Source of the DNA: Candidatus Poribacteria bacterium
GTDB lineage: Bacteria; Poribacteria; WGA-4E; WGA-3G
Direction: 5' to 3'
Length of the DNA stretch: 64,000 nucleotides
NCBI GenBank assembly: GCA_965214095.1
Contig: OZ243938.1
Location: 3,232,001-3,296,000 of the forward strand
In this document: piece after piece, positions 610 to 58,751 of the stretch
How positions within the stretch are numbered: position 1 is the first letter of the stretch
Layout of the letters: every line of letters begins with the position of its first letter
Notes under the pieces: generated by a model
Databases searched by the model: none
The model's input: only the letters and a program-made list of their open reading frames with translations
Told to the model about the DNA's origin: nothing
Position numbers and translations under genes: made by a program

Positions 610-637
610 TTGACAAACTGCTTCAATCTGCTAAAAT
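610..637 (+). promoter_or_regulatory. sigma70-type promoter
   Basis: TTGACA-N16-TAAAAT with TG extended -10. Confidence 0.6.
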
Positions 638-686
638 ATGTCCAGAGCATATCTCATCCGGCAACTTCCAATTTTCACCGAACCTT

Positions 687-3017: not shown

Positions 3018-3063
3018 GTATAGTTCTATTTCTTCTTGTAATTTCTCAAGTAATCCTTCCACA

Positions 3064-3166
3064 TTGACATTCCGTTCCAATCTGATAAAATAGTAACCCA
3101 TTCTATCGGATCATCCTGTTAGCTTTTTTCGGCAGTATGCACCCGATTTGTACCTAACCCGCGTCA
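3064..3166 (+). promoter_or_regulatory. Tandem sigma70 and ECF-type promoters
   Basis: TTGACA-N16-TAAAAT (3064-3091) and TGCACCC-N17-CGTCA (3138-3166). Confidence 0.65.
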
Positions 3167-3226
3167 TTATAAGTACAGACATAAGATTTGGATACATACT
3201 TTTTCGCACACTTTGAAAGGTGACTT

Positions 3227-6200
3227 ATGAAAGACAATGACGTTGAATTAATCCACCGCATCCTTGAAGGTGATGATTCTGCTTTCTCCACCTTAGTTGA
3301 GAAATATCAGAAGCAGGTTCACGCACTTGCATGGCGTAAAATCGGTGATTTCCATATTGCCGAAGATATAACACAGGACACCTTCCTGAAAGCATATCAG
3401 AAACTCACGACACTTAAGAACCCGCAACGATTCGCAGGATGGCTCTATGTGATTGCAACACGTTGCTGCCAAGCATGGCTACGCAAAAAACAGATACAGA
3501 CCGAATCGTTAGAAGAAATTGATAGTGATGCGTTAGAACCTGAGGCATATTCACGATATGTTTCTGAGGAGGAGACGAAAGTAACCGTTGCAGCACAACG
3601 TCAAGTCGTCAAGAAACTCCTTGCAACATTGCCTGAGAGTGAACGCACGGTGATAACATTACACTACTTTGGTGAGATGACGTGTGAAAAGATGAGCGAG
3701 TTTTTAGGTGTATCCGCGAACACAATAAAGAGCAGATTACGCCGCGCACGGAACCGTTTGAAACAAGAGGAACCGATGATCCGAGAAGCAATTACGAACT
3801 TCAAAATATCTCCAACACTTACTGAAAATATAATGCAAGAAGTATCACAGATCAAACCTACTCCCCCTTCAGCAAGCAAACCTTTAATTCCGTGGATGAT
3901 GGGTGCCGCAGGGGCAGTATTGATTGCACTGATGTTTGGTATAGGTGGCCAGTTCTTAGCACGTTTCCAAAAACCGTATAGTTTAGATGCTCAATCTGAA
4001 AGGACGGTTGAACTTGTAGATGCACAGGTTGTTCAAAACCTTCAGATAGAATCTGACAACAGAAATCAAACAGGGATGCGATCCGATTTAGGTGGTAGAA
4101 GTAATGGCGATGGAGAGAATGCGGAACAGGCTTTAGGGGACCAAATCGATTACACACGATGGAATTTGCCGATGGGGGCAAAACGGAGATTCGGAAAAGG
4201 AATATTGAACGACATGGAGCTTTCACCTGATGGCAGAACAATTGCAAGCAAAGGGTATCGTAGAACAATTTGGCTATGGGATGCGGAAACGGGTGAACAC
4301 TTGCGTACAATCAAGGTGCCAAATGCTCCAGCCACAGGTTATCAATTTTTTAAAAATGGCACTATGGAAACAACAGTTATTCCTCTTAGTCAATACAATC
4401 CTGACGATGACAGAGCTTCAATTATAGGTTTTAGCGGTTTTAATAATAAAAAAACCAAAGCTGCATACATTGTTTCCTCCGGTCCACTCAGATCAATTGA
4501 ATTCTTAGCAGACAGTAAAACTCTTATGACTCAGAATTTGGATGGTACTGTCTGGTTATGGGATATCACTTCAGGAGAACAGAAAGCATTATTTCGTCCA
4601 GAACTACCTGGATTGAAACTTGATAGTTACATAAGTTGGGTTAATCTTTATCCTGATCAATGGCGGCTGGCGGCTGATGTCTATTTTGCTCCTTCAGGTG
4701 AAGTTATTTATGCTCTCGCTGCGGGAGATAGAATTGGTACAATTTACATACAAGATGGACACACTGGTAAACTATTACGCACACTGGAGGGACAAAGTAA
4801 AATTATAAGCAAAAAAAATACCATAGGTCGAATAGGTTATGGACAAAAAACACCTATTCAAAGTCGCTTGCAAATTCCGGGAATAAAAGATGTCTTTTCA
4901 GGTAAGGAACCTCGGCGAGGCGTGGAATGGATAACAGAATTATATTTTGCGCCAGATGGCAAAACACTTGTGAGTAAAAGCCGATTCAGAAACAGTAATA
5001 GGAGTAGTTATAGTGGTGCCGTTGAACTTTGGGATGTTAAAACAGGTGAACTGCTAACAAGACATGGATTGGGCACAGATTTAAAGTTCTCAGGAGATGG
5101 AAAAGCACTCGCATTTATGAATGGGGTGGGAAGAGGGTACAAGGGATGTGTGATATGGGATCTTGCAGATCGTCGTAAAATTGCTGAATTTGCGGGTAAG
5201 GTTGACCTAAAGTTTTCAAGAGATGGGAAAACATTCACTATTATACGGAATGACAGTTTAGAGATGTGGGATATCGCGACGCGTCGCAAAATCACATCAA
5301 TGAGTACACCTCCAGAACTGTTGACAGTTCTTCCAGACCGGCATGCATTTTCAGGAGATGGTACAATCTTTGCTGCTGTAAATAGATACGGCACAGTCAA
5401 TTTATGGGAAACACAAACTGACACACAACTACGCACCCTCACTACAAACTATTCAACACCAATTACTACGATGGCATTCACACACGATGGCAAATCGCTT
5501 GTAAGTGGGAACGCTTCCGGCAACATTCAACTCTGGAATTTAAACACTGGTAAAGTAAGCAGCACACTAACATCACCTGAAAACAAGTCTATTTATGGAT
5601 TAGTTTTTGCAGAGGACAATGCCACACTCGTCAGTGGAGGCATAAGAAACTTTGATAAATGGAATATTACCACTGGAAAAAGAGTTAACACTTACACTCT
5701 ACAATGGGCAGTGGCACAAGTTTTTAGCAGTACCTCTCATTATGGTATTGGGAGTTCAGGCGATACCGTCTTTACATGGCCCACTACGATTATAGCATTG
5801 ACCCCAAAAGGCGGAAAAATCGCCAAAACTATTTGGTCTTCACATGAAAGAAAAACTGAGGAAGATGGAAGTGAGATTAAGGTATGGGATATTCCGACTA
5901 GCGAACACCTATGTACCGTAACAAATGAATCTTTTGGTCAAACGTTAGCATTCACATCCGATGGAAATATGTTCGCTACTTTGGATGAGGATATATCATA
6001 CACTGTAGATGAACATACTGGTAAGAAAGTTGGAGATTTTAATAAATGTATAGTGTACTTATGGGACACATATACTGGCAAAAAATTAGCAGCATTTGAC
6101 GTGCCGAAGGATCCAGAAAATAACTTCAATCGACCTGATATTTATGCTGGAGTTTTTACACGCGACAGCAAAACGTTTGCTGCTGCTGGGAGTTTTGGAG

Positions 6201-6526
6201 ACAATTCAATCTTTTTATGGGATATTAAAACAAAGACGCATTTCGCAACGCTCAGAGGACATGGACACGTTGTTTGCAGATTGACAGTTTCACCGGATGA
6301 TACTATTCTTGCCAGTGGGGATTCAAATGGTGAAATTCGTTTGTGGAAAATACCTTCAGGTGAACATCTCGTTACATTCCAATCGCCTGGTGGACACATT
6401 AGCAATATTACATTTGCACCTGATAGTAAGAGTTTCGCAAGCACAAATGGTCGTTCAGATGGCGTATCTTCTAATTCCAGAGAAGGTGGAACCATATTCC
6501 TATGGGATGTGCCAAATGTAAAGTAA
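3227..6526 (+). CDS. ECF sigma factor fused to TM helix and WD40 beta-propeller domain
   Basis: sigma2 (AEDITQDTFLKAYQKL..FAGWLYVIA), sigma4 (LPESERTVITLHYFGEMTCEKMSEFLGVSANTIKSRLRRAR), hydrophobic helix, WD40 repeats. Confidence 0.92.
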   Translation: MKDNDVELIHRILEGDDSAFSTLVEKYQKQVHALAWRKIGDFHIAEDITQDTFLKAYQKLTTLKNPQRFAGWLYVIATRCCQAWLRKKQIQTESLEEIDSDALEPEAYSRYVSEEETKVTVAAQRQVVKKLLATLPESERTVITLHYFGEMTCEKMSEFLGVSANTIKSRLRRARNRLKQEEPMIREAITNFKISPTLTENIMQEVSQIKPTPPSASKPLIPWMMGAAGAVLIALMFGIGGQFLARFQKPYSLDAQSERTVELVDAQVVQNLQIESDNRNQTGMRSDLGGRSNGDGENAEQALGDQIDYTRWNLPMGAKRRFGKGILNDMELSPDGRTIASKGYRRTIWLWDAETGEHLRTIKVPNAPATGYQFFKNGTMETTVIPLSQYNPDDDRASIIGFSGFNNKKTKAAYIVSSGPLRSIEFLADSKTLMTQNLDGTVWLWDITSGEQKALFRPELPGLKLDSYISWVNLYPDQWRLAADVYFAPSGEVIYALAAGDRIGTIYIQDGHTGKLLRTLEGQSKIISKKNTIGRIGYGQKTPIQSRLQIPGIKDVFSGKEPRRGVEWITELYFAPDGKTLVSKSRFRNSNRSSYSGAVELWDVKTGELLTRHGLGTDLKFSGDGKALAFMNGVGRGYKGCVIWDLADRRKIAEFAGKVDLKFSRDGKTFTIIRNDSLEMWDIATRRKITSMSTPPELLTVLPDRHAFSGDGTIFAAVNRYGTVNLWETQTDTQLRTLTTNYSTPITTMAFTHDGKSLVSGNASGNIQLWNLNTGKVSSTLTSPENKSIYGLVFAEDNATLVSGGIRNFDKWNITTGKRVNTYTLQWAVAQVFSSTSHYGIGSSGDTVFTWPTTIIALTPKGGKIAKTIWSSHERKTEEDGSEIKVWDIPTSEHLCTVTNESFGQTLAFTSDGNMFATLDEDISYTVDEHTGKKVGDFNKCIVYLWDTYTGKKLAAFDVPKDPENNFNRPDIYAGVFTRDSKTFAAAGSFGDNSIFLWDIKTKTHFATLRGHGHVVCRLTVSPDDTILASGDSNGEIRLWKIPSGEHLVTFQSPGGHISNITFAPDSKSFASTNGRSDGVSSNSREGGTIFLWDVPNVK

Positions 6527-6981: not shown

Positions 6982-9912
6982 ATGAAAAATGATGATGTTG
7001 AACTAATTCAAAGTGTTCTTTCTGGCGATGAAGATGCTTTCGCTGAACTTGTGAATAAGCATAAAAAGGCTGTTCACGCACTTGCATGGCGGGTAATTGG
7101 AGACTTCCACATCGCTGAAGACATCACACAGGACACCTTCCTGATAGTGTATCAGAGACTTCACACCTTGAAAGATCCAACCCAGTTTCTTGGATGGCTC
7201 TATGTGATTGCAAGACGCCGATGCTACGCCTGGCTCCGTAAGAAACGGATACGCACACAACCGTTGGAGGACGCAGAAACAACTATGATACAAGAAGATG
7301 TATATTCACGGCATGTAATAGAAGAACGTGCTAACACTGCTGTTGATGCACAACGCGAAGTTGTCAAGAGACTTCTCGCGAAGCTAAAAGAGAGCGAACG
7401 CACGGTGATGACGCTCTACTACCTCGGTGAAATGACAGTCGAAGAGATTAGCAAGTTCTTAGGTGTTTCTGTCGGAACGATAAAAAGTCGGTTACAGCGG
7501 GCACGGAACCGTCTACAGAAGGAGGAAACACTGATTAGAGAAGCACTCGAACATTTCCAACTCTCACCGAACTTAACTGAAAACATCATGCAAGAAGTTT
7601 CACGTCTCAAACCTACGCCTACCGCCAGCAAACCCATAGTGCCGTGGGCAATTGCTGCAACAAGTGCGGTCTTAATTGTGTTGTTACTTGGTATAGGCAG
7701 TCAACACTTAGTCCGTTTTCAGCAACCTTATTCATTAGATGCACAAGCAGAGATGACGGTTGAACTCGTTGATGCTCCTATTATGTTAAATGTTGATAAG
7801 AAACCAGATGTACGACGTGAAATTGGGAATTCAAACGCACTTAATAAAAACGATAGCAACGGTCAGAAACCTGATAACGTTTTGTTAGCCGCCGCGCAGG
7901 TGGAAGGAGAAGACATGTCTAATCAAAAACAACAGTGGATTCATACAAAACCAGTTAGTGGAACTGGAGCCCTGAACCTATGCCCTACCCCTGATGGGGA
8001 TATCTATGTAATAATGAATTATCCTGCTGTCTACAAATTAGCAACAGGTAGAAACACTTGGCAACGTATCCGCATTAACATTAATACCTGGACTGGTAGA
8101 GCCTATATGTCCAAGTGGAACAATACGTTGTACTTTTTGAATAATAATGAACTCTTCACTTCAAAAGATGACGGTGAAAATTGGGATTTACTCTATTCTT
8201 GGAAAGGAGAGAAGTACAAGTTATTAAGTGAAAAATTAGTACTAACGCAACAAGCGTTTTACGTCGCTTTTGAGAATGGTGTTCTCCAGTCTCAGGACAA
8301 AGGCAAAACATGGAAAAACATAAGCGATGGGTGGATGGGAAGAATGAGAACATTAGTTGAGATCCAGAATACGATTTTCGCGGGAACTGACAATGGTTGT
8401 TCTCGTTACAGTGGTGGCGAATGGAAACGCTTGAAATTCCCAGTCACGATTGGCAGGATTATTTCAACTGCAGCAACCAACAGGAAACTCTATATTGCTG
8501 CATGGTTGGATAAGAAAGTTTCTCAAGAATTGAAACGTACTTGGGGAATATTTCGATCAACGGATCTCGGAGATTCATGGCAAGATATTACGCCTACAAA
8601 TGCTTGGAATTTAAACGCAATTCCGCCTGGTATCAGACTCATTGCTTTAGGAGAAACAGTCATAGCAATGGAACGTGGTTTGATCCGTTCAATTGACGGT
8701 GGAGATACCTGGCTGAGTCCACAAGCACATAACACATCACCTACAATGGAAAGTGGTTTGGCAGTTGCGATAGTGAAAAACGATACTATTTATATCAGTA
8801 GTGAAAACGGACTCCATTATTCCACTGATCTTGGTGAATCATGGCACAAGATGAATATCAAGCAAAAGGGAGGAAATATATATGATCTAATCGCTTTTAA
8901 AAAGGTTGATAAAAATCATAGCACACCTGCTGTTCTCTATGCAAGAATAGAATTAGCACTAGGACACGGAGATGAGATTCAAAAAACCGATGACGGCGGC
9001 AATTCTTGGAAACCCGTTCAAATAGCAATACCAATGACAGAACCTAACAGAGAAACCCCACCGCATATCACCCAAATTATTAAAGACGGTGATGTTCTTT
9101 ATGCAAAGGGTAAGGAAAATATATTTCCCAGTTATTATACACGTATTTACCGCGTATCCAGTGATGGTAGGACGCTTGTGCAGATTCAGGGTATGCCAGT
9201 TCTTAATTCGTATGAGTTAGATGAACAAGTATCCGAAGGAAGTGCTCTTGGTGCAACTCAGTTTCTTAAACTGTTTACACAACCAAAAAGTAAACTTAGA
9301 AGTGACCTTACAGAAAGAGGGTTACACGGAGCGTTTGCTGTTACGGAAGACACGTTCTACGTTGAATATAACTATAAGCTCTTCCGGTGGAAGTTTGGTG
9401 ATACAGAATTCTATGACACTGAACAGGAAGAAACCATAGAATTGACTGAGGACATAATAAAGAAAGATCTTAAACTGGCTGTTTCAGGGAATACTGTCTA
9501 TGTTGGAAAACGGGATGGCAATCTCGTTGTATCGCTTAATAGAGGTAACAATTGGGTTGATCTCACCCCTACTCTACCTTTCACAGTTAGAGCTTTCAAT
9601 GACATCGTGGTTGTCGGTAACACAGTATATGTAGCAACAGATGCAGGCGTCGCTGCATCAGATCAAGGTAATAATTGGGGTGTTGTTACTGATTTAGAGA
9701 CTACTAATCTCGTCATGGAACATTTGACTGTTGATGGCACAAAACTCTATGGCGTTACCAAAGATACTGGCATCTATCGATTGGAAAATGACACATGGAA
9801 TCAGATTGTGTCAGAGATACCAGAGAGAATAACATCTCTCGCTGTTGATGGAAATACCTTATATGTGGGAACAGATGGTCAAGGTATGCTTCACCTAAAT
9901 CTAAATAAATAA
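6982..9912 (+). CDS. ECF sigma factor - TM - Asp-box/BNR beta-propeller fusion
   Basis: sigma2/sigma4, TM PWAIAATSAVLIVLLLGIG, repeated SxDxGxxW Asp-boxes. Confidence 0.92.
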   Translation: MKNDDVELIQSVLSGDEDAFAELVNKHKKAVHALAWRVIGDFHIAEDITQDTFLIVYQRLHTLKDPTQFLGWLYVIARRRCYAWLRKKRIRTQPLEDAETTMIQEDVYSRHVIEERANTAVDAQREVVKRLLAKLKESERTVMTLYYLGEMTVEEISKFLGVSVGTIKSRLQRARNRLQKEETLIREALEHFQLSPNLTENIMQEVSRLKPTPTASKPIVPWAIAATSAVLIVLLLGIGSQHLVRFQQPYSLDAQAEMTVELVDAPIMLNVDKKPDVRREIGNSNALNKNDSNGQKPDNVLLAAAQVEGEDMSNQKQQWIHTKPVSGTGALNLCPTPDGDIYVIMNYPAVYKLATGRNTWQRIRININTWTGRAYMSKWNNTLYFLNNNELFTSKDDGENWDLLYSWKGEKYKLLSEKLVLTQQAFYVAFENGVLQSQDKGKTWKNISDGWMGRMRTLVEIQNTIFAGTDNGCSRYSGGEWKRLKFPVTIGRIISTAATNRKLYIAAWLDKKVSQELKRTWGIFRSTDLGDSWQDITPTNAWNLNAIPPGIRLIALGETVIAMERGLIRSIDGGDTWLSPQAHNTSPTMESGLAVAIVKNDTIYISSENGLHYSTDLGESWHKMNIKQKGGNIYDLIAFKKVDKNHSTPAVLYARIELALGHGDEIQKTDDGGNSWKPVQIAIPMTEPNRETPPHITQIIKDGDVLYAKGKENIFPSYYTRIYRVSSDGRTLVQIQGMPVLNSYELDEQVSEGSALGATQFLKLFTQPKSKLRSDLTERGLHGAFAVTEDTFYVEYNYKLFRWKFGDTEFYDTEQEETIELTEDIIKKDLKLAVSGNTVYVGKRDGNLVVSLNRGNNWVDLTPTLPFTVRAFNDIVVVGNTVYVATDAGVAASDQGNNWGVVTDLETTNLVMEHLTVDGTKLYGVTKDTGIYRLENDTWNQIVSEIPERITSLAVDGNTLYVGTDGQGMLHLNLNK

Positions 9913-10175: not shown

Positions 10176-10279
10176 TTGACAAACCCACCTGATTTGGTAG
10201 AATAGTATCTCACTGTTTCCGACCAACCCATCTGCAAACCTGCAGAATTTGGCAACCTTTTTACATATATCCTGCGTCA
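10176..10279 (+). promoter_or_regulatory. Tandem sigma70 and ECF-type promoters
   Basis: TTGACA-N16-TAGAAT (10176-10203) and GGCAACC-N17-CGTCA (10251-10279). Confidence 0.7.
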
Positions 10280-10327: not shown

Positions 10328-13315
10328 ATGATAAACGAAGATGTTGCCATTATTCAACGCATTCTCGCTGATGATGAAACTGCTTTCGCAGAGCTTGTAA
10401 AAAAATATCAGAAGGCAGTGCATACGCTTGCTTGGCGAAAGATTGGGGATTTTCACATTGCAGAGGACATCACCCAAGATGCCTTCCTGAAAGTGTATCA
10501 GAAGCTCCACACCCTGCAAGACCCAAACCAGTTTGCTGGGTGGTTATATGTAATCACAACAAATCTATGCTCCACATGGCTTCGCAAGAAACGGATACAA
10601 ACCAAACGTTTGGAGGACGCAGAGACAATGATGGCACAGAGAGATGCATATTCTGAACATGTTACAGGAGATAGCACCAAAACTGCTGTTGAAACACAAC
10701 GGGAAGTGGTCAAGAAATTGCTTGCGAAGTTGAAAGAGAGTGAGCGGACGGTGATGTCACTTCATTATCTTGGTGAGATGAAGATTGAAGAGATAAGCAG
10801 ATTTCTGGGGGTATCCACAAGCACAATCAAAAGCCGTCTTAGGCGTGCACGGAACCGTTTACAAAAGGAGGAAACAATGATAAAAGAAGCACTCGAACAT
10901 TTCCAACTCTCACCAAACTTAACTGAAAACATCATGCAAGAAGTTTCACGTCTCAAACCTACGCCTACTGCTAGCAAACCACTTGTACCGTGGGCAATTG
11001 CTGCAACAAGTGCAGTCTTAATTGTGTTGTTACTTGGCATAGGGAGTCAACAATTATTCCGTTTTCAGCAACCTTTTTCATTAGATGCACAAGCAGAGAT
11101 GACGGTTGAACTCGTTGACACACCTATTGTGCTAAATTTAGATGCGAAACCGGATGTCCGAAATCAACTGGGCAGTATAAATCCTGCTGGTGATAGTGAG
11201 AATGAAGGTCAGAAACCAGATGAAGTCTTGTTGGCTGCCGCAGAAACAGATGAAGATGACAAGGTGTCTAATCCTAAACAGCAGTGGATTCAGGCAAAAC
11301 CTACTACGGGAACTATGGTAGAAGGTTTGCTTGCAACCTCTGAGGATGTTCTTTACACGCTCGCTCAAGGACACATATACAAATTACAAGACGATAGCAC
11401 GGGGTGGCAACATGTTAGTGATGTTAGCTCAATAACTGATGTGCCGCTTATTGAAATTCCTATGGCAGAACGGAACAATACCTTCTATATGGTTCCCTCC
11501 AATAAACTCTATGCTTCAATAGATGACTGCAGGACATGGGATTTAGTTCATCAATTTCCTGATGAATATTATTCTCCAACTCAATTACTTCTCACTGAAA
11601 AAACTATTTACATCATTTTTGAACATCCAAACGGTGCATTCCGTTCTGAGGATAAAGGAAAAACATGGAAGGATATGAGTGGTGAATTTCCCAATGAACC
11701 CGATGCTATTGTAACGGTCCAAGACACGGTATTTGCTTTAGCAGGTAATATCTATCGCTGGAACTCTGGTGGTTGGCAACGTTTAGCAGAATTCCCAGTA
11801 CCTCAAGCAAAGTCATGTTATTCCATTACAGTAACTAAAGATAAGTTGTATGCCTTCACAATCAATGCCCATTTTGATCCTGATAATGCAGCAAAGGGGC
11901 AACGAGGCTGGTGGATATTTCGCTCAACTGACTTAGGGAATTCGTGGGAAAACATAACTCCAACACAGGTGTGGAAATCAAGAGAAGGATGGAGAATCAA
12001 TATAAGACTTGTTGCTGCTGGTGAAACACTTCTTGCACTGGAACAAGGATTGCTACGTTCTACTGATGGTGGAGATACATGGATGCCTCTAGAAAAAATT
12101 GGTAAATCTCTTGAAATGTTTTCTAATTCTCCAATTGCGGTGTTGAATGAAAGCATTTTCTATTTTGGCAGCCCGTATTCCGGACTCCAACGTTCTATTG
12201 ATGAAGGTAAATCATGGGAAGTGGTCAATGTTACTTCAAATACAAGGGGTATTGGCAACCTAATTGTAGATAGAGTAAATGAAAAAGGACAAAATACACT
12301 TCCAATTATTTATGGGAACGTTGGAGATATGGTAAAAACTATTGACAAGGGTAAGTCTTGGAAAACTATTCCAATCGATCTGTCAATGGATCCACCGAAT
12401 GATGAAGATTTCTTGGACATTACACAGATAATTGAATCGAAAGGTATTATCTATGCTAAAGGTACAAATTTTCTTATTGGTGCTTATGACCAAGGAGTAA
12501 CACATATATTTCACATGTCTACAGAAAGCAATATGTTAGTACCGATTCAAGATCTACCAATCATTGACCCGTGGTTAGGGAGCCAGCTATCTCAAAGAAA
12601 ACATGACTTGTCAGATAAGGCGTTTGTTGAACAGTTGCAAGAAAGATTTGCGGGAGCAACACAGTTCTTTATACAATTGGTTCAAATGGCACCTATACAA
12701 CAAGAAAACCTTCGACGAATTGGTTTGCGTGGCGCGTTTGCGGTCAGTGATGACACAGTTTATATGGAATACAACTTTAAACTATTCCGTTGGAAACAAG
12801 GTGAAAAAGAATGGTATGACACTGGACTGGAAGAGACCGTGGAATTAAAGATAGATGTAGCAAGAATACCTCTGAAACTCGCTACTTCAGGTGATACTGT
12901 TTATGTAGGAAAACGCGATGGACACCTCGCCGTTTCGTTTGATAGTGGAAATAATTGGATTGATCTTACTCCAGCGTTACCTTTTGTAGTTAAAGTATTC
13001 AAAGATATTGTGGTTGCTGGGTCTACCGTTTATGTAGCAACAAACGCAGGTATCATTACATCAGATGATGGAAGGAATTGGCGTACTATCACCGATGCAG
13101 AAGGAACGAATCTCAGTATGGACATACTCACTGCTGATGGCACGATGCTTTATGGTGTTATCAAGGATACTGGCATCTATCGCTTAGAAAATGGCACATG
13201 GAATCAGATTGTCTCAGAAATGCCAGAAAACATAATATCTCTTGCTGTTGACGGAAATACTTTATATGTGGGAACACAAGATCAAGGTATGCTTCACTTT
13301 AATCTTAGTAAATAA
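10328..13315 (+). CDS. ECF sigma factor - TM - Asp-box/BNR beta-propeller fusion
   Basis: Same architecture; sigma4 GVSTSTIKSRLRRAR; RBS GGAG. Confidence 0.92.
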   Translation: MINEDVAIIQRILADDETAFAELVKKYQKAVHTLAWRKIGDFHIAEDITQDAFLKVYQKLHTLQDPNQFAGWLYVITTNLCSTWLRKKRIQTKRLEDAETMMAQRDAYSEHVTGDSTKTAVETQREVVKKLLAKLKESERTVMSLHYLGEMKIEEISRFLGVSTSTIKSRLRRARNRLQKEETMIKEALEHFQLSPNLTENIMQEVSRLKPTPTASKPLVPWAIAATSAVLIVLLLGIGSQQLFRFQQPFSLDAQAEMTVELVDTPIVLNLDAKPDVRNQLGSINPAGDSENEGQKPDEVLLAAAETDEDDKVSNPKQQWIQAKPTTGTMVEGLLATSEDVLYTLAQGHIYKLQDDSTGWQHVSDVSSITDVPLIEIPMAERNNTFYMVPSNKLYASIDDCRTWDLVHQFPDEYYSPTQLLLTEKTIYIIFEHPNGAFRSEDKGKTWKDMSGEFPNEPDAIVTVQDTVFALAGNIYRWNSGGWQRLAEFPVPQAKSCYSITVTKDKLYAFTINAHFDPDNAAKGQRGWWIFRSTDLGNSWENITPTQVWKSREGWRINIRLVAAGETLLALEQGLLRSTDGGDTWMPLEKIGKSLEMFSNSPIAVLNESIFYFGSPYSGLQRSIDEGKSWEVVNVTSNTRGIGNLIVDRVNEKGQNTLPIIYGNVGDMVKTIDKGKSWKTIPIDLSMDPPNDEDFLDITQIIESKGIIYAKGTNFLIGAYDQGVTHIFHMSTESNMLVPIQDLPIIDPWLGSQLSQRKHDLSDKAFVEQLQERFAGATQFFIQLVQMAPIQQENLRRIGLRGAFAVSDDTVYMEYNFKLFRWKQGEKEWYDTGLEETVELKIDVARIPLKLATSGDTVYVGKRDGHLAVSFDSGNNWIDLTPALPFVVKVFKDIVVAGSTVYVATNAGIITSDDGRNWRTITDAEGTNLSMDILTADGTMLYGVIKDTGIYRLENGTWNQIVSEMPENIISLAVDGNTLYVGTQDQGMLHFNLSK

Positions 13316-13577: not shown

Positions 13578-13681
13578 TTGACAAACCCACCTGATTTGGT
13601 AGAATAGTATCTCACTGTTTCCGACCAACCAATCTGTAAACCTGAAAAATTATGCAACCGTTCTCCTCCTAACTTGCGTCA
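13578..13681 (+). promoter_or_regulatory. Tandem sigma70 and ECF-type promoters
   Basis: TTGACA-N16-TAGAAT (13578-13605) and TGCAACC-N17-CGTCA (13653-13681). Confidence 0.7.
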
Positions 13682-13730: not shown

Positions 13731-16694
13731 ATGAACAACGACGATGTTGCACTCATCAGACAAATTCTTGATGGTGACGAAATCGCTTTCGCTGAACTTG
13801 TGAAAAAGTATCAAAAACAGGTTCACGTGTTAGCATGGCGAAAGATTGGTGACTTTCATATCGCTGAGGACATTACCCAAGACACCTTCCTGAAAGTGTA
13901 TCAGAGACTACATACCTTGAAAGATCCAAACCTATTTTCTGGGTGGCTCTATGTAATTACGACACGCTTATGTGCTACATGGCTACGGAGAAATAGAATT
14001 CAAACGCAACCTTTGGAGGATGTAGAGGAAACCATGATACAGAGAGATGCATATTCACAACATGTCGCTGATGAACGCGCTAAAACAACCTCTCAGACAC
14101 AACGGGAAGTAGTCAAGAGACTTCTCGCGAAATTGAAAGAGAGTGAACGCACGGTAATGACGCTCTACTACCTCGGTGAAATGACAGTTGAAGAGATTAG
14201 CAAGTTCTTAGGTGTTTCTGCAGGAACGATAAAAAGCCGACTACAACGTGCACGGAATCGTCTACAAAAGGAGGAAACAATGATAAAAGAAGCACTCGAA
14301 CATTTCCAACTCTCACCAAACTTAACTGAAAACATCATGCAAGAAGTTTCACGTCTTAAACCTACGCCTACTGGTAGCAAACCACTTGTACCGTGGGCAA
14401 TTGCTGCTACAAGTGCAGTCTTAATTGTGTTGTTACTTGGCATAGGCAGTCAACAGTTACTCCGTTTTCAGCAACCTTATTCATTAGATGCACAAGCAGA
14501 GATGACGGTTGAACTTGTTGACACACCAATTGTGCTAAATCTTGATACAGAACCAGATGTTAGAAATCGATTGGGCAATTCAAATGCTTTGGGTATCAGT
14601 GAGAACGAAGGTCAGAAACCAGATGAAGTATTATTCACCGCTGCAGAAACCGAAGATGAGGACAAGGTATCCGTTCCTAAACAGCAGTGGATTCAATCTG
14701 AACCTGTCAAAGGAAGTCGGACATATACTTTGCATGTTACCTCTCAAGGAGAACTATATGCTCTTGGTGGAAAAAACCCAAGTATTTTCAAACTATCAGA
14801 CGATGAAACGGGTTGGAAACACATCTTTGACATTATTTTACTTAAGTCCGCTTGGAGTGGAGATTCTCCTATCACAAAGTGGAATGATACCCTCTATTTT
14901 ATACCATCCCATGAACTATTTGCATCAAAGGATGACGGCAAAACTTGGGCTTTAGTCTACTCATGGGAAAGGGAATATGATGCAATCCAATTTATATTTA
15001 CAGATAAAGTATTTTATCTTGCTTTTGACAAAGGTATTTTTCGCTCGTATGATCTTGGCACTACTTGGGAGGAAATAAACGAAGGCTTAATGGGAGATAT
15101 TAGTTCTGTTGTCAAAGTCCAAAACACATTGTTTGCAGGAACCGATAATGGATTCTATCGTCTGGAGGGAGACACTTGGAAACGATTGAAATTCCCTGTT
15201 GAAGTTGGTAGGATACGTTCTCTTACATCTACGGAAGGAAAACTCTATGTTGCAGCAGAATTGAGAGATGATTTATTAGATCCTCACAGAGTATCTCGTG
15301 GACTGCAACGTTCATGGTGGATATTCCGTTCAACCGACTTGGGTAATTCCTGGGATGATATAACCCCAACACATGCCTGGAACATAAAAGGATGGCCTCC
15401 CTTTGTAAAGCTGATTGCCTCTGGTAATACACTGTTAGCCATGGAAAAAGGGATGGTGTGTTCTAATGATAGTGGGGATACATGGCAACCCACGCAATTA
15501 TCAGAGTCAACCCCAACAATAAACGCTGATCTAGACAGGTCAGTAGTGGTAAACGGGAATGTATTTTATGTTACCAGTGCTGAGGATGGACTCCATCGAT
15601 CTCTTGATAAGGGTAAATCATGGGATAAGGTCAATTTTGAAAGGGAAAGTAGAGTTGATGACTTAGTCTTGTTTAAGGGAAAAATTAACGGACAGATAAC
15701 TCCCTCAGTGCTCTACGCGAAATCCGGAGACAGAATCATAAATACCATTGATCAAGGTGAATCTTGGAACGTCGCTCAACTGAAAATACCGATGGCAGTT
15801 CCTGATAAAGAAGAAACTCCAAGTATTACGCATATACTTAAATACGGTGGTGTCATTTATGCCAAAGGTGGAGACCATCTTGGAAGAGGCGAAACCCGTA
15901 TATATCGTATTTCGACTGTAGACGGTATTTCAATAACACCGATTCAAGGTTTGCCAATCTTTGACTCAATGGAACTAAGTAACTTGTTGGATCAAGGTTT
16001 TTCAGCCAAACAGTTGCGAGAGAGTGCATCTGGTGCAACCGAATTCTTTGAACAGTTGGCTAAATGGGATCCTCAACAACTAAATATCTATATGCAATTA
16101 GGGTTCCGGACTGGTGCGTTCGCTATTAGTGCCGATACGTTCTATATGGAATACAACTACAAACTCTTTAGATCGAAAATGGGTGATACAGAATGGCATG
16201 ATACCGGATTGGAAGAATACGAATTACCATTAAAAAGAGCAATGAGAAACCTAAAACTTGCAGTTTCAAATGATACTGTATATGTTGGAAAACGGGATGG
16301 TAATCTCGTTGTATCGCTTGATAGAGGCAATAATTGGGTTGATCTTACCCCCGCACTACCATTTCAAGTAAAAGCATTCAATGAAATCGTGATTGTCGGA
16401 AACACAGTATATGTAGCAACAGATGCAGGTGTCGTTGCATCAGGTCGTGGAAATAATTGGGGTGCTATCACTGATGCAGAAGGAACGAATCTCAGTATGG
16501 ACATACTCACTGCTGATAGCAAGACACTTTATGGTGTTACCAAAGATACTGGCATCTATCGCTTAGAAAATGGCACATGGAATCAGATTGTTTCAGAGAT
16601 GCCAGAAAACATAACATCTCTTGCTGTTGACGGAAATACTTTATATGTGGGAACACAAGATCAAGGTATGCTTCACTTTAATCTCAATAAATAA
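13731..16694 (+). CDS. ECF sigma factor - TM - Asp-box/BNR beta-propeller fusion
   Basis: Start moved from GTG 13695 to ATG 13731 (RBS GGAG; matches paralog 40630 MNNDDVALIR). Confidence 0.92.
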   Translation: MNNDDVALIRQILDGDEIAFAELVKKYQKQVHVLAWRKIGDFHIAEDITQDTFLKVYQRLHTLKDPNLFSGWLYVITTRLCATWLRRNRIQTQPLEDVEETMIQRDAYSQHVADERAKTTSQTQREVVKRLLAKLKESERTVMTLYYLGEMTVEEISKFLGVSAGTIKSRLQRARNRLQKEETMIKEALEHFQLSPNLTENIMQEVSRLKPTPTGSKPLVPWAIAATSAVLIVLLLGIGSQQLLRFQQPYSLDAQAEMTVELVDTPIVLNLDTEPDVRNRLGNSNALGISENEGQKPDEVLFTAAETEDEDKVSVPKQQWIQSEPVKGSRTYTLHVTSQGELYALGGKNPSIFKLSDDETGWKHIFDIILLKSAWSGDSPITKWNDTLYFIPSHELFASKDDGKTWALVYSWEREYDAIQFIFTDKVFYLAFDKGIFRSYDLGTTWEEINEGLMGDISSVVKVQNTLFAGTDNGFYRLEGDTWKRLKFPVEVGRIRSLTSTEGKLYVAAELRDDLLDPHRVSRGLQRSWWIFRSTDLGNSWDDITPTHAWNIKGWPPFVKLIASGNTLLAMEKGMVCSNDSGDTWQPTQLSESTPTINADLDRSVVVNGNVFYVTSAEDGLHRSLDKGKSWDKVNFERESRVDDLVLFKGKINGQITPSVLYAKSGDRIINTIDQGESWNVAQLKIPMAVPDKEETPSITHILKYGGVIYAKGGDHLGRGETRIYRISTVDGISITPIQGLPIFDSMELSNLLDQGFSAKQLRESASGATEFFEQLAKWDPQQLNIYMQLGFRTGAFAISADTFYMEYNYKLFRSKMGDTEWHDTGLEEYELPLKRAMRNLKLAVSNDTVYVGKRDGNLVVSLDRGNNWVDLTPALPFQVKAFNEIVIVGNTVYVATDAGVVASGRGNNWGAITDAEGTNLSMDILTADSKTLYGVTKDTGIYRLENGTWNQIVSEMPENITSLAVDGNTLYVGTQDQGMLHFNLNK

Positions 16695-16953: not shown

Positions 16954-17057
16954 TTGACAAACCCACCTGATTTGGTAGAATAGTATCTCACTGTTTCCGA
17001 CCAACCCATTTGCAAACCTGCAGAATTTGGTAACCTTTTTGCATATATCTTGCGTCA
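16954..17057 (+). promoter_or_regulatory. Tandem sigma70 and ECF-type promoters
   Basis: TTGACA-N16-TAGAAT (16954-16981) and GGTAACC-N17-CGTCA (17029-17057). Confidence 0.7.
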
Positions 17058-17105: not shown

Positions 17106-20100
17106 ATGAAAAACGAAGATGTTGCTATTATTCAACGCATTCTCGCTGATGATGAAACTGCTTTTGCTGAACTTGTGAAAAAGTATCAGAAGGCAGTGCA
17201 TACGCTTGCTTGGCGAAAGATTGGGGATTTTCACATTGCAGAGGACATCACCCAAGATGCCTTCCTGAAAGTATATCAGAAGCTCCACACCCTGCAAGAC
17301 CCAAACCAGTTTGCTGGGTGGTTATATGTAATCACAACAAATCTATGCTCCACATGGCTTCGCAAGAAACGGATACAAACCAAACGTTTGGAGGACGCAG
17401 AGACAATGATGGCACAGAGAGATGCGTATTCTGAACATGTTACAGGAGATACCACAAAAACTGCTGTTGAAACACAACGGGAAGTGGTTAAGAAATTGCT
17501 TACGAAGTTGAAAGAGAGTGAACGTACGGTGATGTCACTTCATTATCTTGGTGAGATGAAGATTGAAGAGATAAGCAGATTTCTGGGGGTATCCACAAGC
17601 ACAATCAAAAGCCGTCTTAGGCGTGCACGGAACCGTTTACAAAAGGAGGAAACACTGATTAGAGAAGCACTCGAACATTTCCAACTCTCACCAAACTTAA
17701 CTGAAAACATCATGCAAGAAGTTTCACGTCTCAAACCTACGCCTACTGGTAGCAAACCACTTGTACCGTGGGCAATTGCTGCAACAAGTGCCGTCTTAAT
17801 TGTGTTGTTACTTGGCATAGGCAGTCAGAATTTAGTTCGTTTTCAGAAACCTTTTTCATTAGATGCACAAGCAGAGATGACGGTTGAACTTGTTGATACA
17901 CCTATTGTGTTAAATTTAGATGCGAAACCGGATGTTAGAAATCAACTGGGCAGTATAAATCCTGCTGGTGATAGTGAGAATGAAGGCCAGAAACCAGATG
18001 AAGTCCTGTTGGCTGCCGCAGAAACCGAGGAGGAGGACAAGGTATCTAATCCTAAACAGCAGTGGATTCAGGAAAACGGACCTATAGGACATGGGTATCT
18101 GCTGACGTACTTCCCTACACCTGAGGGACAGATCTACATTGTATACAATGAAGGCAGAGACTATAAGCTATATAAACTGCCAGAACGTGAAACTGAATTT
18201 CAACACATTAGTGATATTACGTCAAATTCAGTTACTTATTTTGACAGTATCTTTATGGTGAAGTTGAACAATACCCTCTATTTTGTTGGATCTAACGAAC
18301 TAAACGAACTTTTCGCATCAACCGATGGTGGTGTGACTTGGCATTCTGTGGGTAAGTGTCCAGACGGATGGATTTATGGATTTGAAGTAATTGATGATAG
18401 GTTTTACCTTGTCATTGAACATAAAATCTTCGTTTCTGAGGACACCGGAAAGACATGGTCTATTCTTGACAAGGGATTGCCGTGGGAAGTAAACACTCTG
18501 GAAGTAATTCAAAACACACTATATGCTGCAACAAACAAAGGTCTTTATCACCTTCACGGTGGTAGTTGGCAACCTTTACAATTTCCCATAACTGAAGCCA
18601 AAGCAATTGTATCGTTTGCTGGAACTGAAAAATACCTATATGTCCTGACAGTATGGGATTGGAAAAATGTTGGACCGCAAGGACGGACATGGTGGCTCTT
18701 CCGATCTACCGATAAAGGACAGTCATGGACAGATATAACACCAACAAACGCACTGCCCATTATGGGATCTGAACCCTTTGAAGAATTACCTGAGGCTACA
18801 CTTGTCGCAGTCAAAAACACAGTATTATTAATCGGGTTGAGTGGTGCTGCAGTGTTTCGTTCAATTGACAACGGTGATACATGGACTCTTAAAAATACTA
18901 ACGATATTTCGGTGATGTCAAACAGTGTTCGCAATGCAGTAGCGGTAGATGAAAACACGTTCTATTTACAGGGATATTCTGGTTTTTATCGCTCAATTGA
19001 TGGAGGACTATCGTGGAAAAGGTTTAATCCTGGGATGAAAGGAGCAATCGTTGACTTGATTAATGTCAAAAAAAATAGAGTGCAGAATTCATCCAACTCC
19101 CTATATGCGATGTTTACTGGTGGACTTCAAAATCAGTGGGTATTTGAATCCAGTGATAAGGGAAAATCTTGGCATGTGGTGAATCCAGAAATTCAAACTC
19201 AAGAACAAATACCTTCTTTTACTTGGATAGCAGAGTCTGGCGGGGCACTTTATGCTAAAGGTCAAGGACCTACCAGTTGGGCAATCATTGGTCTGTATAG
19301 GATTTCTGAGGATCGCAATATGTTAGTCCCGATTAAAGGAATACCCGTCATCAGTTCATCAACTTTATTACACCTATTGAATACAACAAAAAGAGGACCC
19401 AATTTTGATCTATCTTATGATGCGTTTGTTGAACAGTTACAGGAAAGTTCTGTTGGGGCAGCACAGTTCTTTAAACAGTTGGCTCAAACGAATCCCAGAA
19501 ATGCAGATGGTTCCTTTAGAAGGTCAGGTTTACGCGGAACATTTGCTGTCAGTGGCGATACGTTCTACATGGAACACAACTATAAACTCTTCCGATGGGA
19601 ACCTAGTGATACTGAATGGTACGACACCGGACAAGAAGAAACCGTTAGATTGACTTGGGATGTAATAAGAAGAGATCTTAAACTTGCTGTTTCAGATGAC
19701 ACTGTTTACGTAGGAAAAAGGGACGGTCATCTTGTCGTTTCGCTGGATAAGGGGAATAATTGGATTGATCTCACCTCAGCACTACCATTTTCCGTAAAAA
19801 CTTTCAATGATATCGTGTTTGTCGGCAATACAGTGTATGTAGCAACAGATGCGGGTATCGCAGCATCAGGTCGTGGAAATAATTGGGGTGCTATCACTGA
19901 TGCAGAAGGAACAAATCTCATAATGGAGATACTCACTGTTGATGGCACAATACTATACGGTGTTACCAAAGATACTGGCATCTATCGCTTAGAAAATGGC
20001 ACATGGAATCAGATTGTCTCAGAGATTCCAGAAAACATAACATCACTCGCTGTTGACGGAAATACTTTATATGTGGGAACACAAGATCAAGGTATGCTTC

Positions 20101-20126
20101 ACTATAATCTTGATAATAATAAGTAG
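17106..20126 (+). CDS. ECF sigma factor - TM - Asp-box/BNR beta-propeller fusion
   Basis: N-terminal ~320 aa nearly identical to 10328 gene; divergent propeller. Confidence 0.92.
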   Translation: MKNEDVAIIQRILADDETAFAELVKKYQKAVHTLAWRKIGDFHIAEDITQDAFLKVYQKLHTLQDPNQFAGWLYVITTNLCSTWLRKKRIQTKRLEDAETMMAQRDAYSEHVTGDTTKTAVETQREVVKKLLTKLKESERTVMSLHYLGEMKIEEISRFLGVSTSTIKSRLRRARNRLQKEETLIREALEHFQLSPNLTENIMQEVSRLKPTPTGSKPLVPWAIAATSAVLIVLLLGIGSQNLVRFQKPFSLDAQAEMTVELVDTPIVLNLDAKPDVRNQLGSINPAGDSENEGQKPDEVLLAAAETEEEDKVSNPKQQWIQENGPIGHGYLLTYFPTPEGQIYIVYNEGRDYKLYKLPERETEFQHISDITSNSVTYFDSIFMVKLNNTLYFVGSNELNELFASTDGGVTWHSVGKCPDGWIYGFEVIDDRFYLVIEHKIFVSEDTGKTWSILDKGLPWEVNTLEVIQNTLYAATNKGLYHLHGGSWQPLQFPITEAKAIVSFAGTEKYLYVLTVWDWKNVGPQGRTWWLFRSTDKGQSWTDITPTNALPIMGSEPFEELPEATLVAVKNTVLLIGLSGAAVFRSIDNGDTWTLKNTNDISVMSNSVRNAVAVDENTFYLQGYSGFYRSIDGGLSWKRFNPGMKGAIVDLINVKKNRVQNSSNSLYAMFTGGLQNQWVFESSDKGKSWHVVNPEIQTQEQIPSFTWIAESGGALYAKGQGPTSWAIIGLYRISEDRNMLVPIKGIPVISSSTLLHLLNTTKRGPNFDLSYDAFVEQLQESSVGAAQFFKQLAQTNPRNADGSFRRSGLRGTFAVSGDTFYMEHNYKLFRWEPSDTEWYDTGQEETVRLTWDVIRRDLKLAVSDDTVYVGKRDGHLVVSLDKGNNWIDLTSALPFSVKTFNDIVFVGNTVYVATDAGIAASGRGNNWGAITDAEGTNLIMEILTVDGTILYGVTKDTGIYRLENGTWNQIVSEIPENITSLAVDGNTLYVGTQDQGMLHYNLDNNK

Positions 20127-20538: not shown

Positions 20539-20642
20539 TTGACAAACCCACCTGATTTGGTAGAATAGTATTTCACTGTTTCCGACCAACCAATCTGTCC
20601 ATCTGCAGAATTATGCACCAGTTTTATCCGTAAGTCGCGTCA
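20539..20642 (+). promoter_or_regulatory. Tandem sigma70 and ECF-type promoters
   Basis: TTGACA-N16-TAGAAT (20539-20566) and TGCACCA-N17-CGTCA (20614-20642). Confidence 0.7.
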
Positions 20643-23600: not shown

Positions 23601-23672
23601 GCTGTTGATGGAAGGACTTTATATCTTGGTACACAATTTGAAGGTATGCTTCGTTTTACGCTTGAAGAATAA
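20667..23672 (+). CDS. ECF sigma factor - TM - Asp-box/BNR beta-propeller fusion
   Basis: sigma4 GVSANTIRSRLRRAQ; RBS GGAGG; Asp-boxes. Confidence 0.92.
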   Translation: MQKNDVELIHQILDGDDTAFTELVTKYQKSVHALVWKKIGDFHIAEEITQDTFLKAYQKLSSLKSPQRFASWLYVIASRRCLAWQRRKRILTKSLEETNSAQIEKATYSQYVVNENMRITAETQRDVVKKLLAKLPESERTIITLHYFSEMSSSEIGAFLGVSANTIRSRLRRAQQRLQKEETMIREALDHFKLSPNFTENIMQEISRLKPTPSASKPLVPWTVAAASAVLIVLMLGIGSQNLVRFQQPYTLDAQAETTVELVDTPIVLNLDTKPDVRNQLGNSNALGISENDGQKPNEVLLAAAETEDEDKVSTSKQQWIQSEPIIGSAVENLFASDKGELYTVLDAHIYKWQDNNTGWQQLSGDIRDYHDRLNETTIITDVPIAKWDNILYIALENLLLASRDDGKTWKTVHEWQPDYRHPRELVLTEQAFWVSHNRGVFRSEDKGNTWQEVDVELIQGPIFLIAIQNTVFAGSYTGLYRWNTSSWERVELPVAEALLVYKAAAAKERLYVLAFLGYDFYDDKAIREGRQRTWWIFRSDDLGNSWKDITPTNAWPLKAEAPEIQLVAAGETIMLMGKGIVRSIDGGDTWLPFQRPNTLPTNIKYYWPSVALNEHVFYAIGRGLHRTTDGGKTWSKVNITPNRRWHGIQNLLVHKPKERIENSQPTLYGTAGIGIVKTTDEGKSWKQIQVEIPLDTSVREDQPSIIQMVKSDGVLYAKGSSDYPIGELRFYRVSEDDNTLVSIQGIPTFDSRELKEYLRQSQNPSLEELQKRFSGATQFFKWLLQSTPHQQDMLIRDGFRGQFTVSSNTYYSEYNYKLFRWEPGDTEWKDIGQEETSSKTWGHLKLAVSGDTVYVGKRDGHLHVSYDKGDNWIDLTPALPFPVRFFKKIMTAGSTVYVATDAGILTSDDGRNWRVVADTEGRNLIMEELAVDGTTLYGITQDTGIYRLKSDSDTWKQIIAEIPESAKVNLTSNGTSLAVDGRTLYLGTQFEGMLRFTLEE

Positions 23673-31331: not shown

Positions 31332-31553
31332 GGTCAATTAACAGAATCTGACCAACTGCCAGTAATTCCAAGGTTTTACATATATGTGAAGGCTGATTTG
31401 CAAATATCAAACGGCTTAGAGAATACAACGCAGATAGAACCATTGATGAAGTCATAAACATGTATCATAAACTCTAATGTTTACTATAAATAACCCTAGA
31501 CAAATTCAGAAACCCAAACACAAAAATCATCAATGATGAACCGAGGACAACCC

Positions 31554-37417: not shown

Positions 37418-37894
37418 ATGAAAAACGACGGTGCACTTATTAGACAAATACTCAGCGGTGATCAAATCGCTTTCGTTGGACTCGTGAAAAAGTATCAAAA
37501 ACAAGTTCACGTACTAGCATGGCGGAAGATTGGAGATTTCCACATTGCCGAGGACATTACCCAGGATGTCTTTTTGAAAGTATATCAGAAACTTCACACT
37601 CTGAAAGATCCGAATCAGTTTTCTGGGTTGCTCTACGTCGTGACAACTAACCTATGCAATACATGGCTCAGTAAAAATCGGGATCATTACCAGGTATCAG
37701 AAGATATTGAGACAACTATGATAGAAAGAGACGTATATTCCCGACATATAACAGAAGAGCGAGTTAAGACCACTCTTGAAGCACAACGTGAAGTGGTCAA
37801 GAGATTACTTGCTAAGTTGAAAGAAAGTGAACGCACGGTAATGACTCTCCATTATCTCGGCGAGATGACAGTAGAAGAGATTAGCAAGTTCTAA
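37418..37894 (+). pseudogene. Truncated ECF sigma part of a split fusion gene (nonsense in sigma4)
   Basis: ATG 37418 matches paralog 50692; TTA(L) to TAA at 37892-37894; frame continues GVSAGTIKSRLQRAR into 37964; conserved sigma2 W changed to L (FSGLLYV). Confidence 0.85.
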
Positions 37895-37963
37895 GGGGTT
37901 TCTGCTGGAACGATAAAGAGCCGACTTCAACGAGCGCGTAACCGTCTACAGAAGGAGGAAACA

Positions 37964-57629: not shown

Positions 57630-57640
57630 TCCTATATTAC

Positions 57641-58729: not shown

Positions 58730-58751
58730 TGAAAAATGTGAGAGCTTGACA

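Follow-up and report, generated by a model that had tools for sequence, protein, structure and literature searches.

Does a single open reading frame (ORF) in sponge-symbiont Poribacteria encode two signalling proteins, one with and one without its sigma factor? The question is raised by a 64-kb window, the whole stretch of DNA analysed here (64,000 nucleotides of contig OZ243938.1, assembly GCA_965214095.1, from Candidatus Poribacteria bacterium), which holds 14 head-to-tail paralogs of about 1,000 amino acids (aa). Their common layout is an extracytoplasmic function (ECF) sigma factor (sigma2 plus sigma4), a linker roughly 38 residues long, a single transmembrane (TM) helix rich in Ala, a conserved juxtamembrane stretch and a large extracytoplasmic sensor. 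An earlier inspection of the sequence, hereafter the original prediction, noted a Shine-Dalgarno (SD) sequence and a start codon directly after sigma4 in these genes and proposed that they give rise to a second, sigma-less protein. Comparative analysis of the nucleotide sequences shows that purifying selection acts on the motif at this junction independently of the protein sequence, and that the motif displays the features of a strong start in bacteria. Our preferred reading, to which we give a probability of roughly 0.65, is that translation begins at two places in the single ORF of each gene of the family, and that the gene probably makes both a tethered ECF sigma factor and a sigma-less TM sensor isoform.

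An internal Shine-Dalgarno sequence and start codon in the window

The 995-aa gene at 10328-13315 on the forward strand serves as the example. Pfam and NCBIfam domains, AlphaFold2 (AF2) modeling and Foldseek searches place in it sigma2 (aa 23-89; PF04542, E = 9.6e-15), sigma4 (aa 127-178; PF08281, E = 1.5e-13), the linker, the single TM helix, a juxtamembrane stalk and a double beta-propeller sensor (aa 318-995). The sigma part scored 96.8 bits with TIGR02937 (cut-off 42.9) and consists of sigma2 and sigma4 only, without sigma3 or sigma1, as in ECF (group 4) sigma-70 factors; its fold resembles those of SigW, AlgU, RpoE and CnrH, with SigW being the top match in both NCBIfam and the PDB. At the end of sigma4, AAGGAGGAAACAATG at 10865-10879 encodes K180-E181-E182-T183-M184. 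Codons K180 (AAG), E181 (GAG) and E182 (GAA) write the internal SD AAGGAGG at 10865-10871 (forward strand), and 5 nucleotides (nt) past GGAGG lies an in-frame ATG, the codon of M184 at 10877-10879 (forward strand), which would begin an 812-aa isoform devoid of sigma. This start codon is part of an ATGA, which puts a TGA stop in the +1 frame.

AAGGAGG-N5-ATG is found 11 times in the window. Shuffled sequences contain it 0.09 times on average and at most twice (0 of 100 shuffles reached 11), and 10 of the 11 matches sit at the homologous sigma4/linker junction. Besides the example gene (10865), these belong to the following forward-strand paralogs: 13731-16694 (SD at 14268, ATG at 14280), 20667-23672 (21204, 21216), 23813-26830 (24350, 24362), 28302-31331 (28839, 28851), 34231-37254 (34768, 34780), 37418-40264 (37952, 37964), 43784-46891 (44321, 44333), 47540-50530 (48077, 48089) and 50692-53826 (51226, 51238). 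The eleventh match, at 26214-26228, is at an unrelated site inside gene 23813-26830, with its ATG out of frame. Two further forward-strand paralogs carry AAGGAGG-N5-CTG, namely 6982-9912 (SD at 7519-7525, CTG at 7531) and 17106-20126 (SD at 17643-17649, CTG at 17655), and two have weaker motifs: 3227-6526, a paralog with a WD40 sensor, reads AAACAAGAGGAACCGATG (weak internal SD AAACAAGAGGAACCG, ATG at 3776), and 40630-43629 reads AAGGAAGAAACAATG, with its SD weakened to AAGGAAG at 41167 and an ATG at 41179, both again on the forward strand. The tally of 10, 2 and 2 in the original prediction is thus borne out in all 14 paralogs; the positions 6982 and 17106 that it gave for the CTG cases are the gene starts, with the motifs lying at 7519 and 17643. 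Within the window, AAG accounts for 34% of Lys and GAG for 24% of Glu codons in these paralogs, so the junction motif is written in minority codons.

Conservation and start-site properties of the junction

Since the window paralogs are not independent of one another, the decisive support comes from other genomes. Our comparative sample consisted of 67 loci from 42 Poribacteria assemblies, taken from the best 80 of 252 genome matches, together with the window. Junctions were located with a hidden Markov model of the linker/TM module; of 212 non-identical junctions, 196 belong to intact fusions, whose sigma parts share a median pairwise nucleotide identity of 68%. Throughout these fusions the consensus xxG-GAG-GAA-NNN-ATG is almost invariant. 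A final G is found at codon 180 in 188/196, no matter which of K, E, R or Q is encoded (AAG 154, GAG 16, AGG 10, CAG 8), with AAA (6), CAA (1) and AGA (1) as the exceptions; codon 181 is GAG in 188 of 193 Glu codons, codon 182 is GAA in 191 of 195, and codon 184 is ATG in 190/196, the rest being ATA (3), CTG (2) and GTG (1). Neighbouring codons show no such constraint: codon 179 ends in G in just 79/196, codon 183 is divided among CCG (65), ACA (44), CCC (43) and ACG (29), and codons 185-187 are freely variable. Family-wide, AAG and GAG are used at 38% and 40%, respectively. Relative codon entropy fell below 0.35 in 10 of 153 conserved-residue columns, columns 180, 181 and 182 among them, and in the remaining strongly fixed two-fold columns it is the majority codon that is fixed. 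When the alignment was thinned to 27 sequences of less than 80% identity, GAG, GAA and ATG were each retained in 26/27. Purifying selection at synonymous sites across species is a mark of internal starts, and it is found here; the SD and start codon singled out in the original prediction are conserved family-wide, in the 196 fusions as well as in the thinned set.

A purely protein-level account would hold that KEE-x-M is kept by selection on the polypeptide and that its codons are a frozen relic of the fusion, spread by gene conversion and devoid of nucleotide-level function. In the window, synonymous sites do vary less in the linker/TM block than in the sigma part, a pattern resembling concerted evolution. 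Such a relic is hard to reconcile with the free variation of codons 179, 183, 185 and 186 beside fixed codons 180-182 across 42 assemblies, with the persistence of the constraint in the 27 divergent sequences and through switches of residue 180 among K, Q, R and E, and with the choice of minority codons that are avoided elsewhere in the same genes; we consider it highly improbable. The three ATA cases are orthologues that also carry AAA at codon 180, a joint weakening that we count as one event. This subfamily (L004 at ~4560, L005 at ~4450 and L015 at ~4000), with short ORF segments of ~445 aa, is the one clade observed to combine a weakened start with a weakened SD.

In SD strength, the internal site surpasses the annotated one. 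GGAGG precedes the internal ATG in 183/195 genes versus 58/195 at the annotated starts, which have GGAG-type SDs at 6-8 nt (a match of at least 4 nt in 168/195), and the mean SD duplex energy, calculated with the anti-SD core as yardstick, is −11.5 kcal/mol internally versus −7.5 kcal/mol at the annotated starts. An equally strong SD was found at 1 of 1,426 other in-frame ATGs. Where GGAGG is present, the spacing to ATG is 5 nt in 178 of 184 genes, a functional distance as expected of in-frame internal starts of the ArcB-C, IF2-beta and ClpB-79 type, and the start codon is part of ATGA in 188/196. Outside the junction, GGAGG is depleted (369 found versus 502 ± 22 expected by codon permutation in 172 genes), so these bacteria appear to avoid stray SDs, and Lys-Glu is written AAGGAG in only 40 of 448 instances.

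The messenger RNA (mRNA) around the site is predicted to be open. By folding and synonymous resampling, an unstructured stretch was mapped at 10877-10936 (forward strand), just 3' of the internal ATG, and across 119 genes predicted structure forms a trough from −12 to +51 around this codon. The 60 nt past the internal ATG have a mean minimum free energy of −3.12 kcal/mol versus −6.49 kcal/mol in synonymous resamples (110 genes), i.e., they are 3.37 kcal/mol less stable, and lie above the null in 96% of these genes; twelve other segments in the same test ranged from −1.96 to +2.0, the +2.0 segment overlapping the site, and the annotated start, used as a control, gave just +0.61. Codon choice is in keeping with this reduction in local structure, which is a further mark of internal starts: Arg186 is the A-rich AGA in 125/187, a codon that no other Arg column has in more than 16/196. 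The site that the original prediction proposed as a start thus unites optimal spacing, locally unfolded mRNA and an SD stronger than any other in the gene.

An SD-like sequence inside a translated ORF might instead act as an elongation pause after sigma4 that aids sigma folding or membrane targeting of the TM segment about 40 codons on. GGAGG does lie within the ORF just upstream of that segment, and synonymous-site conservation would be compatible with a pause signal as well. Such a pause, however, needs neither an ATG at a fixed 5-nt distance (190/196 with ATG, 178/184 with this spacing) nor unfolded mRNA past the ATG, and the TM helix would not yet be synthesised when the ribosome paused. 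SD-induced pausing is itself disputed, which also counts against this explanation, and we rate it very unlikely. Some other routes were tried and set aside. A separate transcript from a sigma70-type internal promoter was rejected, as no such promoter was found on the forward strand inside the sigma ORF (10328-10877) in a search that covered sigma70-type and not ECF-type promoters. Antisense promoter-like matches over the internal ATG were taken as chance, being 9/12 matches produced by ATGATA. Programmed frameshifting at the SD was rejected as well: there is no conserved slippery codon (codon 183 is free), and the heptamer A AAA AAG occurs in the K-K class only.

Sigma-less copies, possible split forms and the proposed two-product model

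Four natural copies have lost the sigma part and keep long ORFs that can be reached from the internal ATG alone. The first is the window gene 37418-40264 (forward strand), in which a nonsense codon (TTA to TAA at 37892-37894) interrupts sigma4 and the leftover 766-aa ORF, 37964-40264, opens at the internal ATG. A similar gene at locus L003 carries a 1-nt deletion 2 nt from the position of that nonsense codon and retains an 813-aa ORF. At L001, sigma residues ~15-175 are deleted out of frame, leaving an ORF of ~825 aa served by the internal start only, and at L039 no sigma is present upstream of AAGGAGAAACCTATG. Among the 150 database representatives listed, 13 start exactly at Met184.

Comparison of these copies revealed that the family is a mosaic. 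Between window gene 37418-40264 and L003 12638-15620, synonymous divergence (dS) is 0.11 in sigma and 1.2-1.5 in the sensors, which are non-orthologous. Taken with the comparison of 50692-53826 and L003, sigma modules differ by a dS of 0.1-0.2 and sensors by a dS of 1.2-1.6, with a nonsynonymous divergence (pN) of ~0.3. In the pair examined, the break in divergence falls past the linker, TM helix and stalk, with a dS of 0.33 in the first 100 codons after M184. It looks as if the N-terminal 280 residues have been moved onto varied sensors by module shuffling or gene conversion. This raises the possibility that the junction motif is some other RNA or DNA element, be it the target of a regulatory RNA or protein, a place of processing or the recombination junction of sigma and sensor. 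The mosaic structure itself (dS of ~0.1-0.2 versus >1.2) and the fixed third base of GAA-182, which anti-SD pairing does not explain, speak for such an element; against it, the break just described lies past the stalk and not at the motif, and the motif matches the SD that these genes carry at their real starts. We regard this alternative as unlikely.

Other members have parted with sigma in a different manner. At 610-3017 on the forward strand of the window lies a sigma-less TM-WD40 relative in which a consensus-like TTGACA-N16-TAAAAT (610-637) takes the place of sigma and the ORF, 687-3017, starts in the linker (MEIIMQEV). Translation of this type would start inside the old linker, with no visible SD; the type occurs twice more at L006 (~700-3300 and 3400-5800) and is thus conserved between genomes.

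In the database, five sigma proteins of 183 aa (P0274, P0280, P0292, P0316 and P0371) end in a +1-frame tail (RRNR, RRNP, KKNR or KRRKR) that stops on the TGA overlapping the internal ATG. They may show the gene in a split, ATGA-coupled form or may stem from a sequencing error in a homopolymer. Given the ATGA in 188/196 genes and these shifted forms, the fusion is one indel away from a coupled two-gene operon, and it could be argued that the internal start is used only in split genes, single-base indels upstream creating a sigma/TM-sensor operon in which sigma ends on the TGA of ATGA, and that selection retains the start for these states. Runs of four to six A directly before GGAGG in 90/184 genes speak for this reading, as do the shifted database tails. 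Yet 60/184 genes have only AA at this position, and a junction frameshift was seen in 0 of ~205 junctions in the 67 loci and the window, so the database forms may be homopolymer sequencing errors; use of the start in split genes only is, in our estimate, very improbable. A separate 217-aa class (P0309, P0313, P0317, P0347, P0336 and P0340) stays in frame through sigma and linker and ends just before the TM helix with ...KPVTPVRQ* or ...KPRGFSPK*; it could be a soluble sigma-plus-linker form or a shared frameshift.

If both starts of the fused gene are used, initiation at the 5' start would yield a membrane-tethered ECF sigma factor composed of sigma2-sigma4, two-helix linker, one TM helix and periplasmic double-propeller sensor. 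The internal initiation region at the end of sigma4 (GGAGG, 5-nt spacer, ATG and unfolded mRNA) would allow ribosomes to start at the internal ATG and produce the TM sensor without sigma, 812 aa long for gene 10328-13315. Because the internal start looks better than the annotated one, this shorter form may be made in excess. It might modulate signalling as an anti-sigma-like partner acting in trans through its N-terminal pair of helices, or else as a receptor subunit or decoy that lacks sigma, and the tethered sigma factor could be freed by regulated proteolysis, a model borrowed from IutY-type fusions. As the original prediction suggested, the fusion may descend from an operon, and release may involve site-2 proteolysis and, by analogy with RsiW, a ClpXP degron. 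An ancestral sigma/anti-sigma operon would fit the ATGA in 188/196 and the one-base-shifted sigma forms ending on TGA; among the linker/TM profile matches, no outgroup with separate sigma and sensor genes was found.

Several points weigh against two products from one gene. The sigma-less copies could be young pseudogenes, and selection after sigma loss is unmeasurable by the ratio of nonsynonymous to synonymous divergence because sigma and sensor modules have been shuffled. Homologues share ancestry, so that raw counts overstate their independence; 2 of the 14 window paralogs have CTG and 6 of the 196 homologues lack ATG at the internal start. Protein-level selection alone could keep the ATG, since Met184 opens a conserved helix (MIREAL). 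Other synonymous sites (K2, Q193, K210 and D276) are equally fixed, on majority codons, and the third base of GAA-182 (10871-10873) is fixed as well and not explained by anti-SD pairing. Moreover, neither profile searches nor structure modeling lend solid support to an anti-sigma role for the short form. With regard to the additional fixed sites, Q193 CAA, K210 AAA and D276 GAT (numbering of gene 10328) are each ~97% fixed in the family, and a need for A-rich, unstructured RNA may account for GAA-182 and codons 193, 210 and 276 alike.

Linker, sensor, relatives and surroundings

The original prediction further compared the peptide after the internal start with the juxtamembrane and TM part of an anti-sigma factor, RsiW of Bacillus subtilis, a single-pass membrane protein in which a short stretch like P-x-(L/F)-T-x-N-(I/V)-M precedes the Ala-rich TM helix. 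In the example gene the cytoplasmic linker spans 10871-10954 and the Ala-rich TM helix (PWAIAATSAVLIVLLLGIG), placed by paralog alignment and as helix 223-239 in the AF2 model, spans 10988-11044, both on the forward strand. Two helices are predicted in the linker (aa 182-189 and 198-209), making it a candidate two-helix anti-sigma-like segment; in class II anti-sigma factors, two such short helices clamp sigma4 and sigma2. In an AF2 model of residues 1-265 both helices have a predicted local distance difference test (pLDDT) score of 74-86, and the sigma part is nearest to anti-sigma-bound, closed states (CnrH-CnrY, TMt 0.74; SigW-RsiW, TMt 0.66), with a root mean square deviation of ~27 Å from sigma factors bound to RNA polymerase. 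The full-length model is confident at residues 318-995, and since its residues 89-317 have pLDDT <50, we treat the two-helix likeness as a lead only.

Profile searches did not support the identity of the linker/TM region with RsiW or another anti-sigma factor at curated thresholds. A linker/TM profile matched no anti-sigma protein in the PDB, and Pfam gave nothing but noise at E ≤ 10 in the linker/TM region of 4 paralogs. The NCBIfam model NF052375, named 'antisigma', matched 12 of 14 paralogs with a best E of 3.9e-5, at ~20 bits versus a curated cut-off of 100 that no paralog reached, over a segment that spans the TM helix. A class I anti-sigma domain (ASD / zf-HC2, as in RsiW, RseA and ChrR) is a four-helix fold of ~100 aa, often with the zinc-binding motif HxxxCxxC. 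The ~38 residues from M184 to the TM helix leave too little room for one; HxxxCxxC is absent from the linker, and the linker consensus has no Cys. Unlike RsiW, the family therefore shows no zf-HC2 or class I domain and no Pfam or PDB profile match, and this part of the original prediction was not upheld. Look-alikes of the linker/TM region in the ESM Atlas are small hypothetical proteins, with one zf-HC2 cluster at rank 9 (score 0.87) as a lead only. Prediction of a complex between the sigma domain (aa 1-182) and aa 183-245 scored 0.01 (mark 0.32), which we read as no answer and used neither way.

The sensor is a BNR/GH74-like or WD40 propeller, WD40 being assigned by Pfam in paralog 3227 and in the sigma-less relative 687-3017. 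Foldseek matched residues 318-995 of the example protein to tandem propellers of the GH74 xyloglucanase type (E = 1e-19) and to periplasmic sensor domains of Bacteroides hybrid two-component systems (HTCS). A profile of linker, TM helix and stalk recovered merely 265 representatives among 1.84 billion proteins, indicative of a narrow module; with 2,443 near-length database matches, the family amounts to thousands of proteins. The family may be a main route by which Poribacteria sense host or environmental glycans.

In-frame internal starts have been described for ArcB-C, infB, clpB and mrcB by Meydan et al. (bioRxiv 10.1101/520783). As presented there, Escherichia coli ArcB/ArcB-C is closest to the present case: the gene of a membrane sensor contains, where two domains meet, an SD-like sequence with a start codon; both are conserved across species with raised synonymous-site conservation, and two proteins result from one signalling gene. 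It differs in that blot and Ribo-RET demonstrated a short product consisting of a soluble C-terminal domain, whereas the predicted Poribacteria product, from a sigma fusion gene, would be a membrane sensor without output domain.

Among fused sigma factors, IutY of Pseudomonas putida (ECF243) likewise unites within one polypeptide an ECF sigma domain in the cytosol, one TM helix and a domain in the periplasm, the arrangement also found here, and is activated by regulated proteolysis involving Prc and RseP (PMC5411451, PMC8999054). Unlike the Poribacteria proteins, which carry a GH74-like double propeller and no FecR-type domain, IutY has a FecR-type periplasmic anti-sigma domain and a TonB-dependent receptor as its partner. 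As to a second start in IutY, the words 'internal' and 'start codon' are absent from PMC5411451. ECF52, ECF53 and ECF48 (e.g., SCO4117) and the WD40-bearing ECF57 of Planctomycetes also join an ECF sigma domain to a long C-terminal extension with TM helices or propeller repeats (PMC8999054). ECF52/53 carry a zinc-finger anti-sigma domain that the Poribacteria family lacks, and ECF57 is recognised by a group-specific sigma signature with two conserved cysteines; the likeness is one of architecture, and we assign the family to no numbered ECF group. CnrY, an anti-sigma factor of class II, offers a parallel for the predicted linker helices, having a very short, two-helix cytoplasmic part followed by the TM segment (PMC7406223); there is no sequence similarity to CnrY, and the linker has pLDDT <50 in the full-length model.

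We found no literature linking an internal translation start with a fused sigma/anti-sigma gene and, among the papers listed for Poribacteria sigma factors, none on this family (PMC6081418 is unrelated). The word 'sigma' is absent from the Poribacteria single-cell genomics paper of Kamke 2014 (PMC3909097), and 'Poribacteria' is absent from the main text of the ECF classification paper PMC7826278. In-frame internal starts are known and so are fused sigma/anti-sigma proteins (IutY, ECF52/53, ECF57); the joining of both, as suggested by the present comparison, would be new. Proteins that fuse sigma and anti-sigma are regarded as 'one-component' systems with a single product, and a conserved second start, if true, would turn each into two partners and change models of their regulation and stoichiometry. 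The second product would escape gene callers and ECF classifications. With ~200 diverged copies constrained at the same three codons, the family is also an unusually clean, phylum-wide case of a selected internal start in an uncultured symbiont.

A bolder scenario, which we offer tentatively and consider rather doubtful, is that Poribacteria maintain a large, fast-diversifying set of one-gene, two-protein modules, in which each gene yields a tethered ECF sigma factor and, from a stronger internal start, an excess of the same glycan-sensing receptor without sigma, the short form acts through its two helices as a trans anti-sigma factor or as a dominant-negative subunit, the threshold of each pathway depends on how often either start is used relative to the other, and single-base indels flip genes between fused and split (ATGA-coupled) states. 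If true, one ORF would supply free anti-sigma while the fused sigma/anti-sigma system also retained stoichiometric tethering.

Two kinds of promoter-like elements were found upstream of the paralogs. A sigma70-type TTGACA-N16-TAGAAT at 10176-10203 (forward strand) is the same 28-mer that precedes five paralogs, identical or near-identical copies (with TG) lying at 10176-10203, 13578-13605, 16954-16981, 20539-20566 and 40477-40504. About 50 nt downstream of the 28-mer is an ECF-type GCAACC-N16-GCGTCA (10252-10279, forward strand), with five exact copies upstream of paralogs at 6791, 10252, 13654, 40553 and 43706 against an expected 0.01, and with variants upstream of other paralogs. These paralogs appear to have two promoters, and the ECF-type motif suggests autoregulation; five copies of each element fit a working, autoregulated sigma factor.

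The array is broken up by two unrelated propeller genes, one at 27116-28105, encoding a 329-aa PD40/TolB-like protein, and the other at 31533-33896, encoding a 787-aa WD40 protein that lacks a sigma domain and has an N-terminus resembling a signal peptide. Beyond it, the minus strand at 53898-63999 encodes a 1,243-aa protein without Pfam match, followed by NHL-repeat, ROK and galactokinase genes and an ACC zinc-ribbon protein. The same region also holds an RsbW-like HATPase_c_2 kinase and a SpoIIE/PP2C phosphatase, which look like parts of a partner-switching system.

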